Positions 29,238 to 32,290 of a stretch of DNA of 43,495 bases are shown in pieces. The notes beneath the pieces are model-generated. The model was given only the letters and a program-made list of their open reading frames with translations, made no database searches and was not told the origin of the DNA. Source of the stretch: a virus. Location of the stretch: the UHGV virus genome UHGV-0404561. One strand, written 5' to 3'. Position 1 is the first letter of the stretch, and every line of letters begins with the position of its first letter. Both the position numbers and the translations under genes were made by a program.

Positions 29238-30665
29238 CTACTCCTCTTCAAACAGTCCTTTTTCTTTCGGTTGTGCTTCTTCCACCATTGCTTTTGCGTC
29301 CTCTTCTGTCATACCCTCAAATTTGACAAAATACATCCATGCCGGGACTTTTCCTTGTGCCACATACTGCCACCATCTGCCACGGTCAGCTTCACGATCA
29401 TAAAGGATATCCCCAAAGTCATAGGTGACATCATACGTCCCTACAGGTGATAGGCCGTACAGATCCGCGTACACATTAAGGGCATATATAGTATCATCAA
29501 GGCACGCTTCCAGTTGATCACGCACATCCTTGATAAACTGGACAGTGCGCTGCTGGTCGGCTTCTACACCTGTTGCCGTCTGGATTCCGGAAGACTCATT
29601 AAAAACAAAGTACCCGTTTGCGAATCCGGCTTTGTATCCTATCTGACTTAACAAATGATTGATTCCCTTGATTCTGACATCTGTGTTAAGCTGTGGGTTG
29701 ATTTCCTGATAAAATTCTTTCTGATCATTGCCAAACACGTTTTTTACATAATGTGGCAATCCCTTTGCATCAGCCGGGCCGCGGTGTTTTATACTCTTTC
29801 CGCTTTCGTAAAGCAGACGATCATCAGCCAGAATAATTTTTTGACTGTCAAATATCTCTCCCGCATTCCGGCTGTATGCTATGTCAAGGTCTTTCAGTTC
29901 TTCCACGGCTTCGCGGAATATCGGAAGCCCCAATGGGGACGATATATCTACGTTGTTTGCCTGCGGCGTGCGGAAGATACCGAACATTGGCTTGTCCAGT
30001 GGCTCCCCGGATGCCTTAAGAATCGGCGGTGTGTCCTCCAACATATCGGCCCATTTGGTTTGCGTAAGCGGTATCGGGTCTCCCAGACTTTCCTCCGACT
30101 TAGAAACGTACGCTCGGTTGCTTACATAGTAAGGATAGATCGTCACACCATCCTGCACCGTCTCAACAAATCTGTGATATTCCATACGGGTGTACCATTT
30201 CTTCCCGGACTGGTACGAATCCTTGAAGATAATGCCGCGCACATCAAGATTGTCGTAATCAACAAGCAGCACGTCCGCCGGGGTGAATGCATCCAGGCTT
30301 GTGCCGTTTGGCTTTAAAAACACCGTACCATATGCACAGCCGTACTCCACCCAGTCTCGAAGCTTTGGATAAACTGAATCTATCTGCTGCTGTAGCCATT
30401 CCGCCCGGTCACTGCCTTCCAGGTGTATACCAATTCCAAGAGTTACTAGGCGGGCTGTCTCAGAGCAAAGAGCCTTTGCAAAATTGATAGTTTTAATCCC
30501 TTCATCATCATCCAGCCAATCCGGGTTACCTCTGTAGACCTCGGCGCATTGATTTATGGCTTTTTCCATATCTGGAGATATGATTGTTTCTACATTAAAA
30601 GCATCCTCTGCCTGCCGTTTAAAAATCATGTTAAACCACCTTTTTATCGTTGATAATATTCCCAC
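29238..30665 (-). CDS. Portal protein
   Basis: A 475-aa ORF immediately downstream of the terminase with stop/start overlap. Size and position. Confidence 0.75.
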   Translation of the reverse strand: MGILSTIKRWFNMIFKRQAEDAFNVETIISPDMEKAINQCAEVYRGNPDWLDDDEGIKTINFAKALCSETARLVTLGIGIHLEGSDRAEWLQQQIDSVYPKLRDWVEYGCAYGTVFLKPNGTSLDAFTPADVLLVDYDNLDVRGIIFKDSYQSGKKWYTRMEYHRFVETVQDGVTIYPYYVSNRAYVSKSEESLGDPIPLTQTKWADMLEDTPPILKASGEPLDKPMFGIFRTPQANNVDISSPLGLPIFREAVEELKDLDIAYSRNAGEIFDSQKIILADDRLLYESGKSIKHRGPADAKGLPHYVKNVFGNDQKEFYQEINPQLNTDVRIKGINHLLSQIGYKAGFANGYFVFNESSGIQTATGVEADQQRTVQFIKDVRDQLEACLDDTIYALNVYADLYGLSPVGTYDVTYDFGDILYDREADRGRWWQYVAQGKVPAWMYFVKFEGMTEEDAKAMVEEAQPKEKGLFEEE

Positions 30666-32290
30666 TATGCACTACTCCCCCGTCTTTCCCACAGCGGTTC
30701 CGTTGCATAACGGGCCGCATCAATGAGATGGTTATTTTTATCTGGATAGCCGCTGATAACATTGCCGTCTTTATCACGCTCGTACTCATACTCTTTAAAC
30801 TCTTTGCATGTGTTTGGTGTCCGGTTAGGATCCATAACCAATTTTTTTCCCTGCCACCATTTCATAGAGTATTCAATGCTTCCGGGACCTTTATGCGCCG
30901 CTCTGGAAGGTAATCCAGCATCTCTATAATCTGTAACGGATTTGTTTTCCGCGTTGTCGCACGTGATCACGTAGTCCGTATAACCTCGCTGCTTGATCTC
31001 GTCCGCCGTCCATGTGTTGCTCCGCTTGTTTTCGTACATCTCATCAAGAAAATAGATAGTTTCCCGCGCCGCATCGTAATGCAGTCGCACAAACGCGAAC
31101 TTATCCGGATACCATCCCCAGTCAACGCCCTGATAGATACGATCCATGTGGCTGATTTCTTCGCTCGTGATGGTTCGTTCTTCGATAAATTCGAAGACGT
31201 TGCCGCCGTTTCCGTTCGCTTCACCCATATACTCATTTTCATATGCGCTTGGATTGACCTCTTTTAGATGTTCTGCATCGTTAAGAAATTCCTCTCCCAG
31301 CCAGTCATCAGGGACATCTTTGTATGTGCTTCGCATAACAACGGCGCTCGCGTTTTTAAACTCTGCCTCTACAGTATACTTATTGGCCCAGTTGATCTTG
31401 CTTCTCGGTGGGTTAAATGATTTAAACTTATATGCTTTGTCGCCGCCACGTATAGCGGACTGCTGGATACTTCTAACTTCTTCCGGTCCGGCAAACTGAT
31501 CTAACTCTTCAAACCATACAATACCGATATATCCGAACTTCGGCTTAATTGATTTTATTTTAATCGGATCATCCGCGCCTCGGAAATAGATTTTCTGTCC
31601 GGTTGGCTTATACGTAATCTCAAAAGGAGATTGTTTGAATTTAAACTCTGCATCAATGCCAAGCTTTGAGATCGCCCATTGTAGCTGCGCATACACAGAA
31701 TCTTTTATGGTGTTTCCGACTTTTCGCAGCACAAGCGCATGCATATCAGGATGTTTTTTTATCAGCTCAGGGATAATACATGATATGCAAGACGATTTTG
31801 AGGATCCTCGCCCGCCTGGAAGCACATACTCCGTATGCATGCCGCGCCGGATGTCGCGAATCATCGGGTGGAATACATCCGCCACCACATCAAGATCGAT
31901 GTGATATTCTTTTGCTGCTTTGGCTTCATCTTCTGCCTTCTGCTGTGCTTCTTTTTCTTCTTTTACGGCTATAGCTTTCTCCAAGTCAGACATGGCCTTT
32001 AGCTGTTCGGAAAAAGCCGGAGCGAAGCCGAATGAATCTTTTACTTCCCCCCGTGCGATCATTGCGCGGCGCTTCTGGATGTCAGCAAGAGACATGGTGT
32101 CAGTACCGTTGAGTTTATCCACTTCGGCTTGCTTTTCGGCTATATAGGCTGACACATCAGCATTTTTCAGCAGTCTGTATCCTTCCGCTTCAGGCTTCTT
32201 ATATCCAGCTTTTCTCGCCGCATCAGTTGCGTTCCCGCCATTTTCTATGAAATTTTTTGCGAACGCTTCCCGCTTTGGCGTAAGCCTCAT
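30665..32290 (-). CDS. Terminase: apparent fusion of a small-subunit-like N-terminal domain to the large subunit (ATPase + nuclease), 541 aa
   Basis: N-terminus MRLTPKREAFAKNFIENGGNATDAARKAGYKKPEAEGYRLLKNADVSAYI matches terminase small-subunit HTH. Then Walker A VLPGGRGSSKSS and a PBSX-type TerL body. No separate terS ORF upstream. Confidence 0.8.
   Translation of the reverse strand: MRLTPKREAFAKNFIENGGNATDAARKAGYKKPEAEGYRLLKNADVSAYIAEKQAEVDKLNGTDTMSLADIQKRRAMIARGEVKDSFGFAPAFSEQLKAMSDLEKAIAVKEEKEAQQKAEDEAKAAKEYHIDLDVVADVFHPMIRDIRRGMHTEYVLPGGRGSSKSSCISCIIPELIKKHPDMHALVLRKVGNTIKDSVYAQLQWAISKLGIDAEFKFKQSPFEITYKPTGQKIYFRGADDPIKIKSIKPKFGYIGIVWFEELDQFAGPEEVRSIQQSAIRGGDKAYKFKSFNPPRSKINWANKYTVEAEFKNASAVVMRSTYKDVPDDWLGEEFLNDAEHLKEVNPSAYENEYMGEANGNGGNVFEFIEERTITSEEISHMDRIYQGVDWGWYPDKFAFVRLHYDAARETIYFLDEMYENKRSNTWTADEIKQRGYTDYVITCDNAENKSVTDYRDAGLPSRAAHKGPGSIEYSMKWWQGKKLVMDPNRTPNTCKEFKEYEYERDKDGNVISGYPDKNNHLIDAARYATEPLWERRGSSA

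Follow-up and report, generated by a model that had tools for sequence, protein, structure and literature searches.

A probable single-chain SPP1/SF6-like terminase joining TerS and TerL in prophages of gut Clostridia

The terminase gene of the virus genome UHGV-0404561 most probably encodes a genuine and selectively maintained single-chain enzyme of the SPP1/SF6-like (PBSX) family, in which a near-complete small subunit (TerS) of the SF6 G1P type is joined through a charged helix of ~22 residues to a full large subunit (TerL); we put the probability of this reading at roughly 80%. The results presented below show which domains the protein contains, where they join, that the catalytic motifs are intact, that the whole is conserved and that no conserved signal points to separate products; the mechanism proposed from them is given in conditional terms.

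Layout of the locus and domain organization of the terminase

The window, by which we mean the whole stretch of DNA analysed (43,495 nt), had no terminal repeat or overlap that could be found at its ends. The terminase ORF starts with an ATG at 32290 and runs on the minus strand through 541 codons to a stop at 30665–30667, and reading it as a whole revealed no internal stop and no frameshift. The GTG start of the portal gene overlaps this stop by 1 nt (TAGTG, as read from the sequence), and the order of terminase, portal (phrog_533) and minor capsid protein 2 (PF06152) is that of a head module. The positions of the features are summarized in Table 1. As the original prediction had stated, a separate terS is absent upstream, none of the eight upstream ORFs giving a TerS match in Pfam or PHROGs. 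The same prediction had described the upstream genes as encoding a recombinase and Zn-ribbon proteins; the recombinase was confirmed as a tyrosine integrase (33473–34606), whereas the Zn-ribbon label corresponds to visible Cys pairs only, the 204-aa and 78-aa upstream ORFs matching no family.

Table 1. Positions of the terminase gene, its parts and its neighbours in the window.
Feature	Residues	Position (nt)	Strand	Basis or remark
Fused TerS-TerL terminase gene	541 aa + stop	30665..32290	-	ORF, domain matches, full-length conservation
Shine-Dalgarno-like AGGATGGTGAG		32294..32304	-	4 nt before the terminase ATG; read from sequence
TerS HTH DNA-binding domain (predicted)	1-60	32111..32290	-	Pfam Terminase_2, AF2, Foldseek
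TerS conserved helical core, putative counterpart of the SF6 G1P oligomerization domain	61-106	31973..32110	-	Alignment and fold
Charged alpha-helical linker (predicted), IAVKEEKEAQQKAEDEAKAAKE	107-128	31907..31972	-	Replaces the TerS C-terminal tail
TerL ATPase domain	129-360	31211..31906	-	Terminase_3; start of unfused TerLs
Walker A, LPGGRGSSKSS	157-167	31790..31822	-	Read from sequence
Walker B and catalytic Glu, VWFEE	258-262	31505..31519	-	Read from sequence
TerL RNase H-like nuclease domain	385-541	30668..31138	-	Terminase_3C, 2WBN
Portal gene		29238..30665	-	phrog_533, E 7e-95
85-aa ORF, function unknown (phrog_33130)	85 aa	32309..32566	-	Directly upstream of the terminase; profile search

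The N-terminal part of the protein matched Pfam Terminase_2 (PF03592; SF6/SPP1 G1P type) at residues 3–128 with an E value of 2e-15 and 58.1 bits against a cut-off of 26.1, and it also matched the PHROGs TerS family phrog_51 at residues 1–124. Free-standing TerS proteins of 126–139 aa were 37–47% identical to this module over 80–98% of its length, and the free-standing homologues P0185, P0218 and P0240 are annotated as terminase small subunit. Because the full-length AF2 model was too poor (pLDDT 57), the structural reading was taken solely from a model of the N-terminal domain (pLDDT 77), in which residues 1–60 were predicted with a pLDDT of 87–94 to form helices 5–16, 21–28, 33–42 and 44–61. 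A Foldseek search with this model identified the SF6 TerS DNA-binding domain (4ZC3; TM 0.89, rmsd 1.0 Å, 38% identity), the top fold match of the TerS module was the full-length SF6 TerS (3ZQQ), and phmmer related the module to SF6 TerS (3ZQP) with an E value of 1.3e-3.

Beyond the HTH, helices were predicted at residues 68–79 and from residue 93 onward, and residues 61–106 aligned to free-standing TerS without large gaps as the best conserved stretch common to fused and free-standing proteins, with G81, D85 and L103 invariant and R80, E82, V83, K84, F87, G88 and K105 also invariant or nearly so. We infer that oligomerization, if it occurs, would involve this stretch. The Terminase_2 match stops at profile position 123 of 141, and the TerS C-terminal tail is missing; the alignment and the AF2 model indicated that the C-terminal beta-barrel/tail is not kept and that there is a continuous charged helix instead. 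Judged by the alignments and the predicted fold, the N-terminal ~110–128 residues are a bona fide TerS module that holds nearly all of the conserved TerS core and lacks only the C-terminal tail, in agreement with the earlier proposal that the first ~110 residues resemble a TerS HTH/oligomerization domain. The contrary possibility raised with that proposal, namely, that the N-terminal region is a TerL-specific extension unrelated to TerS, finds some encouragement in the databases, which call the whole protein 'PBSX family phage terminase large subunit'; it is, however, contradicted by the Terminase_2 match above the gathering cut-off, the free-standing TerS homologues and SF6 TerS being the best fold match, and it can be regarded as refuted with hardly any doubt.

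The remainder of the protein matched Pfam Terminase_3 (PF04466) at residues 155–357 (E 1.6e-41), Pfam Terminase_3C (PF17288) at residues 390–530 (E 1.9e-15) and the PHROGs TerL family phrog_3717 at residues 134–404, and it scored 149.3 bits in TIGR01547 (PBSX family TerL) against a cut-off of 105. The SPP1 G2P nuclease (2WBN) was matched over residues 360–538 with an E value of 7.5e-35, and Sf6 gp2 (4IDH) was a weak match to the ATPase domain. In 73 relatives, G159 and S166 of Walker A and both E261 and E262 were invariant, and G160, R161, K165 and D390 were nearly so. By these profile matches and motifs, residues ~130–541 are a complete TerL of the PBSX/SPP1 G2P type with intact catalytic motifs, which bears out the earlier reading as a complete PBSX-type TerL with Walker A GGRGSSKSS.

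Conservation of the fusion and of its junction

The TerS/TerL junction was located at residues ~107–128 (nt 31907–31972) and is intact; the interval 32250–32310, which had been suggested for re-inspection in case a frameshift or stop split the ORF, turned out to be just the start of the ORF. The linker is part of a long helix predicted by AF2 at residues 93–133 and leads directly to the point at which unfused TerLs begin (residues ~128–134), unfused relatives matching from residues 133–136 onward, and free-standing TerS proteins split into variable tails at the linker position. A typical PBSX-family TerL is ~410–430 aa long with ~30–37 residues before Walker A, a description that does not fit the 541-aa protein, which has 156 residues there versus 32–37 in the unfused relatives L003–L005. 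No indels were found at the junction in 67 unique homologous CDSs, the linker length being fixed at ~22 aa. Since this length is constant across sequences that are 63–94% identical, the linker is better understood as a structural spacer than as a zone of cleavage or re-initiation.

As a rule, terS and terL adjoin or overlap each other, as in the unfused relative L004, and one base error could join them, so that a fused ORF might in principle be a sequencing or assembly artefact in which a stop was lost or a frameshift introduced between two separate genes. Against this stands the recurrence of the same architecture. PF03592, PF04466 and PF17288 were all carried by 118 of the 120 best protein clusters (75–93% identity, 536–544 aa), and at least 597 relatives were present in IMG/VR, with an uninterrupted fused ORF in all of the best loci that were readable. 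The comparison with related phages that had been advised earlier showed the same uninterrupted fusion in 77 further IMG/VR or phage loci, in ~65 bacterial species genomes and also in Blautia phage Montmirail (ON453898) and Roseburia phage Jekyll (LR596902), both of them named phages. Broken versions were rare (P0133 and P0136). The sequencing-error explanation fails because the fusion is kept in hundreds of independent sequences, and it retains practically no credit.

Fused and free forms were counted by an HMMER scan of representatives, since a word-indexed search with the N-terminal part gave nothing but short proteins and fragments from contig ends, which were unusable for counting. An N-terminal extension of 100 or more in-frame codons ahead of Walker A was found in 61 of the 149 nearest clusters at 50% identity and in ~65 of the 80 best species genomes, which belong to Lachnospiraceae, Oscillospiraceae and others. 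The fusion is the majority state in this TerL clade of gut Clostridia prophages and is rare in deposited phage genomes, in which only 5 of 1048 matching records cover at least 80% of the protein; the earlier description of the architecture as uncommon thus applies to the deposited phage genomes and not to the clade. The N-terminal modules came from at least four TerS families (Terminase_2, PF10668 + Terminase_2, NF040601/phrog_509, phrog_309 and phrog_2412). Three loci (L072–L074) carry a different N-terminal module at an identical junction, at which EAARAAGE is followed by YHLDLDII, and an estimate by neighbour joining and Fitch parsimony gave at least 15 changes of the N-terminal extension among 103 representatives, the TerL relatives numbering 5112 in total.

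Separate products and ring formation

A real fused ORF may still supply a working enzyme of two subunits, with free TerL, free TerS or both produced through internal initiation, perhaps at a non-canonical codon, programmed frameshifting or proteolysis in the linker. Across the 67 unique CDSs, no internal start for free TerL is conserved: Met143 and Met151 both vary, and where the ancestral TerL began, different lineages have ATC, ATT, CTT or ATG, with ATC/ATT in the window and in the largest subclade. On account of these variable codons, an internal start was rejected for the lineage of the window. A minority of the relatives, L014 and L076 among them, have an ATG at this position that is preceded by GGAG at a suitable spacing, and some lineages might therefore also make free TerL. 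As for frameshifting, a −1 shift in the A-rich linker of the window would lead to a stop after 11 codons and yield a TerS-only product of ~122 aa; the GAA-AAA-GAA run is, however, not conserved, and a slippery heptamer of the X-XXY-YYZ type occurs in no lineage among the 67 CDSs, so this candidate was also rejected.

Amino-acid-normalized synonymous diversity was lower across the TerS part (0.65–0.9) and lowest at codons 3–23 and 109–126, reaching 0.49 of expectation at the latter, a measure that is confounded by uneven sampling and codon composition. The dip at codons 109–126 could be taken to favour a signal for a second product, but it is driven mostly by one densely sampled subclade together with purine-rich Lys/Glu codons, and the constant length of the linker among sequences of 63–94% identity fits a structural spacer. 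Taken together, production of the enzyme as two subunits appears quite improbable. Owing to the same confounding, a pac site embedded in the gene, to which the low diversity at codons 3–23 may point, is kept as a weak lead only.

A further question concerns the assembly of a single-chain enzyme. SF6 TerS forms rings of nine subunits, and TerL motors are pentameric. A nine-subunit TerS ring and a pentameric TerL cannot both hold at a 1:1 ratio, and this mismatch stands against the single-chain model. It would be relieved if the TerS module were now a reduced form, a tethered domain that binds DNA but builds no ring, with assembly proceeding via TerL only and the HTHs serving as sequence-specific anchors, which would also agree with the missing C-terminal TerS fold (Pfam match to 123 of 141, a helix in place of the tail) and with the pLDDT of only 61–78 for the region after the HTH in a monomer model. 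On the other hand, the helical oligomerization core, with the ten invariant or nearly invariant positions from R80 to K105 listed above, is the best conserved part of the module, which would be hard to explain if DNA binding alone had been retained, and a TerS of another family is fused almost whole (positions 1–232 of the 233 in NF040601). We therefore consider such a reduction unlikely, though it deserves to be kept in mind.

Relation to known systems and proposed mechanism

Among the closest known systems is that of the Bacillus phages SPP1 and SF6 (G1P, 3ZQP, 3ZQQ, 4ZC3 and 2CMP; G2P, 2WBN), which shares the TerS family Terminase_2 with a superposable HTH, the TerL nuclease family, and the order of terS, terL and portal. 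This likeness suggests pac-type headful packaging. The two proteins of SPP1/SF6 are, however, separate polypeptides that associate non-covalently, and G1P, which ends in a beta-barrel and a tail at its C-terminus, assembles into a free ring; here, a charged helix continuous with TerL is predicted in place of the tail. The TerL part passes the cut-off of TIGR01547, the model of the PBSX family. In Bacillus subtilis PBSX, XtmA and XtmB are encoded by two genes, and the XtmA-type TerS belongs to Pfam Terminase_2. The TIGR01547 model (NCBIfam) spans only residues 152–457 and is silent on the N-terminal 130 residues. In the lambda gpNu1-gpA terminase, a cos system with non-covalent subunits, the C-terminus of TerS binds the N-terminus of TerL. 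The polarity is the same in the protein described here, which, like a 'Rosetta-stone' fusion, would make this contact covalent; the TerS and TerL families differ.

The terminases of Montmirail and Jekyll, 62% and 36% identical, respectively, over the full length, have the same fused architecture, with an extra PF10668-type HTH ahead of the Terminase_2 module in Jekyll; both are annotated only as 'terminase large subunit', and a remark on the fusion was not found for either. Montmirail forms virions and was detected in the virome together with circularization signals in vitro and in vivo, and its packaging was called 'uncertain, potential COS 5'' (PMC10197239). The unfused sisters L004 (MT835625) and L003 (MT835973), both from human-gut viromes, have TerLs that are 54–57% identical. 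L003 has a closely similar portal and a separate terS of an unrelated family that abuts terL, and L004 has a separate Terminase_2-type TerS of 128 aa, the gene of which overlaps terL by 8 nt. No description of a natural TerS-TerL fusion was found in the searched full-text packaging literature, where absence is not proof, and natural fusions are not mentioned in a 2022 review of TerS (PMC9611059).

With respect to origin, the fusion probably arose when a terS that adjoined or overlapped terL lost its stop codon, and TerS modules would since have been exchanged inside the fused frame. In the single-chain enzyme, the covalent link would take over from the usual contact, in which the C-terminal tail of TerS binds the N-terminus of TerL non-covalently. 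Recognition of the phage packaging site would fall to the N-terminal HTH and oligomerization module, the tethered TerL would make the initiating cut and then dock on the portal and translocate the DNA, and the TerS module would stay attached to the motor; as TerS and TerL reside in one chain, their ratio would be fixed at 1:1.

A broader proposal is that many terminases of siphophage-like gut Clostridia prophages (Lachnospiraceae, Oscillospiraceae, Acutalibacteraceae and Erysipelotrichaceae) form one large and mostly monophyletic clade of obligate single-chain TerS-TerL enzymes, in which interchangeable modules from at least four or five TerS families sit on the same TerL via a rigid charged helix. 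We advance this only tentatively, at slightly short of even odds. If it is true, TerS and TerL would act at 1:1, with TerS staying in the translocating motor, and packaging specificity would evolve by in-frame domain swapping, not by gene swapping.

How DNA is handed from the TerS ring to the pentameric TerL, in what ratio the subunits act and whether TerS stays on the motor are long-standing open questions in the assembly of dsDNA viruses. A natural and widespread covalent fusion fixes the 1:1 ratio, the polarity and the distance of the TerS-TerL contact, and could give cryo-EM and single-molecule studies a stable holoenzyme to work with. In phages of gut Clostridia, annotators who look for terS ahead of terL will often come up empty, since terS is inside terL. 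Satellites that hijack packaging via their own TerS would need another strategy against helpers with a fused terminase, and the exchange of a single N-terminal domain could serve to re-engineer packaging specificity.

The 85-aa ORF directly upstream was also considered as a cryptic TerS, a reading that found no support, the ORF having no TerS signal in profiles and a synteny limited to the close lineage. It lies ahead of the fused gene in 76 of the 82 close loci and in just 7 of the 69 divergent fused loci, and its product could be an accessory packaging factor.

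Domain organization of the fused terminase

The terminase gene (features listed in the table) lies on the minus strand and overlaps, at its stop codon, with the portal gene (phrog_533, E 7e-95), which begins with GTG. In the PHROGs comparison, the small-subunit family phrog_51 covered aa 1-124 and the large-subunit family phrog_3717 matched from aa 134. The TerL part was assigned by NCBIfam to the PBSX-family large terminases (TIGR01547, 149 bits vs a cut-off of 105). In 73 relatives, G159, S166, E261, and E262 were invariant and G160, R161, K165, and D390 were at least 90% conserved. 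For the C-terminal half, matches were found to the SPP1 G2P nuclease (2WBN, E 7.5e-35) and to the Sf6 gp2 ATPase. The original prediction of a complete PBSX-type TerL with a Walker A motif was thus borne out by the two Terminase_3-type domains, TIGR01547, and the intact motifs.

Features of the fused terminase and its upstream region
Feature	Position	Strand	Details
Fused terminase ORF	30665-32290	minus	ATG at 32290, TAG 30667-30665; 541 aa, uninterrupted
Shine-Dalgarno-like motif	4 nt upstream of terminase ATG	minus	AGGATGGTGAG
Terminase_2 (small-terminase family)	aa 3-128		Pfam, E 2e-15, above gathering score
Terminase_3	aa 155-357		Pfam, E 1.6e-41, above gathering score
Terminase_3C	aa 390-530		Pfam, E 1.9e-15, above gathering score
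Walker A	aa 157-167		LPGGRGSSKSS, intact
Walker B and catalytic Glu	aa 258-262		VWFEE, intact
Nuclease Asp390	aa 390		intact
85-aa ORF	32309-32566	minus	phrog_33130 (no assigned function); directly upstream of fused terminase
Tyrosine integrase	33473-34606	minus	PF00589, E 1.7e-29

When aa 1-130 were searched alone, free-standing proteins of 126-139 aa carrying PF03592 only were retrieved, with 37-47% identity over 80-98% of the query, some of them bearing the source name "phage terminase small subunit". The homology to free TerS covered aa 1 to ~106, which is the entire conserved core, with invariant residues that include T4, F10, K27-Y30, Y49, I50, G81, D85, and L103; beyond this point, free TerS proteins continue into variable tails of 25-35 aa, whereas the window protein continues into IAVKEEKEAQQKAEDEAKAAKE. 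The nearest solved structures by sequence were those of the SF6 (SPP1-like) small terminase G1P (3ZQP, 4ZC3, and 2CMP). An AlphaFold2 model of aa 1-135 (pLDDT 77 overall and 87-94 across the first 50 residues) consisted of four short helices, a fifth at 68-79, and a long one at 93-133. Foldseek ranked full-length SF6 TerS (3ZQQ) at the top with a probability of 1.00 and superposed the SF6 DNA-binding domain with a TM of 0.89 and an rmsd of 1.0 Å, and the lower matches were other small terminases (NV1, PaP3, G20c, and P74-26). The predicted TerS identity of the N-terminus was therefore supported by the PF03592-only homologues, the core-wide alignment, and the SF6 TerS fold. By sequence and modelled fold, the protein is an SPP1/SF6-type G1P and G2P pair in a single chain.

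The junction and the integrity of the frame

Unfused relatives in the phage collection matched the query only from aa 133-136 onward. The classical two-gene layout is kept in two contigs from human-gut viromes whose TerLs are 54-57% identical: in MT835625, a 128-aa Terminase_2-type terS and the start of terL share 8 nt, and in MT835973, which has a portal closely similar to that of the window, an unrelated 124-aa terS abuts terL. Their TerL N-termini (MSEIRLSSVLGPAFH.. and MEVQQAARIKLTDLIAPAFY..) line up with KEYHIDLDVVADVFH in the window protein, in which TerL therefore starts at aa ~128-131 and is complete. The C-terminal tail of TerS is absent (the Pfam match ends at profile position 123 of 141), and its position is occupied by a charged linker helix (aa 107-128). 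The stretch at 32250-32310, which was to be re-inspected for a frameshift or stop that could split the frame, is the start of the ORF, and the junction lies instead at nt ~31907-31972.

A sequencing or assembly artefact was ruled out by the conserved architecture, the open frames, the indel-free junction, and the presence of the fusion in two named phages. An identical three-domain architecture and a length of 536-544 aa were found in 118 of the 120 top-ranking protein clusters (75-93% identity), the remaining two being N-terminally shortened calls. IMG/VR held at least 597 relatives; in its best 80 loci (63-94% identity), the frame was never interrupted, and Walker A was preceded by 156-168 residues, compared with 32-37 in unfused TerLs. 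There were no indels within aa 95-170 among 67 unique coding sequences. The fusion is present in Roseburia phage Jekyll (36% identity) and in Blautia phage Montmirail (62% identity, annotated as "terminase large subunit"). Montmirail shows virome and circularisation signals in vitro and in mice (PMC10197239), and therefore a phage with the fused enzyme packages DNA. Broken versions of the fusion (P0133 and P0136) were rare and look like frameshift errors or decay.

No internal start was conserved in the 67 unique sequences, in which Met143 and Met151 vary. At the position of the ancestral TerL start, the window has ATC and the largest subclade ATT; other sequences have CTT, and a minority have ATG. 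Because GGAG is suitably spaced from the start in this minority, some of these lineages might additionally make free TerL. As for programmed frameshifting, the GAA-AAA-GAA run of the window was not conserved and a canonical slippery heptamer was not found. Synonymous diversity was somewhat low across the TerS-coding part, with a minimum at codons 3-23 and 109-126, a signal that is confounded by sampling and Lys/Glu codon bias and that at most weakly suggests an embedded cis element, for instance a pac site. In SPP1-type phages, the pac site is in or next to gene 1.

Distribution and exchange of N-terminal modules

Among 1.84 billion representatives scanned exhaustively with HMMER, 5112 relatives were identified, and extension states were scored in the best 149 of their 50%-identity clusters. 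Classical TerLs, in which Walker A is preceded by fewer than 60 residues, and TerLs with an N-terminal extension of 110-310 residues accounted for 61 clusters each, one was intermediate, and 26 were fragments or missed by the motif pattern. In a scan of one genome per species, somewhat biased by its use of peptide patterns from the query, Walker A was preceded by 100 or more in-frame codons in about 65 of the best 80 loci; the hosts included Blautia, Marvinbryantia, Eisenbergiella, Acetatifactor, Ruminococcus, Oscillospiraceae, Acutalibacteraceae, Solobacterium, and Longicatena. Among deposited phage genomes, 1048 records matched but only 5 of them covered 80% or more of the query, so that the fusion, originally described as uncommon, is rare there but not among the nearest clusters and species loci. 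When 103 TerL domains were placed on a neighbour-joining tree, the fused state required at least 15 changes, compared with ~35 for shuffled states, and was concentrated in one large clade that includes the window protein.

Terminase_2-like extensions made up 32 of 127. The largest extension cluster was phrog_2412 (MPNEKNLIPF..KGGKKSGE.RRRKK..), which has no assigned function, is located at the TerS position, and is probably an unannotated TerS family. Other extensions were a near full-length NF040601 "TerS_not_xtmA"/phrog_509, phrog_309 TerS, and, as in Jekyll, a PF10668 HTH ahead of Terminase_2. In three loci (L072-L074), a phrog_2412-type module (MANEKNLIAGAHKLTVDEQSKGGKKSGQARRKKK.., ORF starting near 2767) replaces Terminase_2 before a TerL 79% identical to that of the window, and it is joined at an identical junction (..EAARAAGE|YHLDLDII), which shows module exchange inside the fused frame.

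The Jekyll protein (CDS 5791-7707) carries a tandem PF10668-type HTH (aa 8-59) and Terminase_2 (aa 78-195) before TerL and ends in an acidic C-terminal tail (..DDEIDEDEEEEDDGEYED), which the window protein lacks. Intein splicing domains (PF14890, Hint) were present in 3 of the 73 sequences in the alignment of the window protein with 72 N-extended relatives; these domains, noted for representatives such as P0256, P0260, and P0288, account for some very long members (700-1078 aa).

Possible mechanism and genomic surroundings

The C-terminal region of TerS contacts the N-terminus of TerL in lambda (gpNu1-gpA) and P22 (gp3-gp2), and the fusion has the same polarity. Because of this polarity, the deletion of the TerS tail, and the insertion of a charged helix of constant length, we propose a "Rosetta-stone" fusion, in which a covalent tether would take the place of the non-covalent contact. 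The HTH domains would select phage DNA, the conserved helical core would probably provide an oligomerisation surface that helps this selection, and the tethered ATPase-nuclease would cut, dock on the portal, and translocate the DNA. The TerS:TerL ratio would then be obligatorily 1:1, and the TerS module would be unable to leave the motor. The SF6 TerS ring has nine subunits and TerL is a pentamer; a rival explanation is that the N-terminal module no longer forms a ring and acts as a tethered DNA-binding domain.

The component families (Terminase_2/G1P-type TerS and PBSX/G2P-type TerL) are known and the gene order is standard. To our knowledge, the single-chain organization is unlike every characterised terminase, and the protein lacks two defining features of TerS, namely, a separate polypeptide and the C-terminal tail. 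The database label is "terminase large subunit", with the fusion unremarked. A full-text literature search, the coverage of which was incomplete so that an earlier mention is possible, yielded no description of natural TerS-TerL fusions and no occurrence of "fused terminase" or "terminase fusion"; a 2022 review of TerS makes no mention of natural fusions (PMC9611059).

As originally noted, no candidate for a separate terS was found among eight upstream ORFs. The recombinase reported among the upstream neighbours was identified as a tyrosine integrase. The supposed Zn-ribbon proteins, of 204 aa and 78 aa, are products of small ORFs rich in Cys and had no family matches. These two and the 85-aa ORF lie between the terminase and the integrase, which is ~1.2 kb upstream on the shared strand, a position relative to the packaging genes that is unusual for a lysogeny integrase. 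The gap of ~100 nt before the 85-aa ORF contains, at 32586-32644, a perfect 13-nt inverted repeat (TAAATAGAGGTGA / TCACCTCTATTTA, 19-nt spacer), a terminator-like hairpin, and an overlapping promoter-like site on the minus strand; the packaging/head operon may start or be regulated here. The window opens (3-137) with a 27-nt unit (CACATCTYGCCGACCTGTGAGCTGYCM) repeated in tandem four to five times, with one minus-strand frame open throughout (DVGQLTGRR repeats); these repeats could equally be coding, non-coding iterons, or a break-point repeat of a circular assembly.

The 85-aa ORF was located upstream of the fusion in 76 of 82 close loci compared with 7 of 69 divergent fused loci, and could encode a lineage-specific packaging accessory. 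It also precedes a deleted terminase in the locus L166 (P0130, 6001-6603; also in L167 and L168). This 200-aa in-frame deletion derivative, identical on at least 24 contigs, has the TerS module and linker (window aa 2-129, 54% identity) followed immediately by the C-terminal ~79 aa of TerL (window aa 463-541, 63% identity). Its locus retains a replication module, a tape-measure gene, and a MobA/MobL-like gene, without portal or capsid genes, and can be read as a defective prophage or, possibly, as a satellite-like element in which only the DNA-recognition part of a single-chain terminase is kept.
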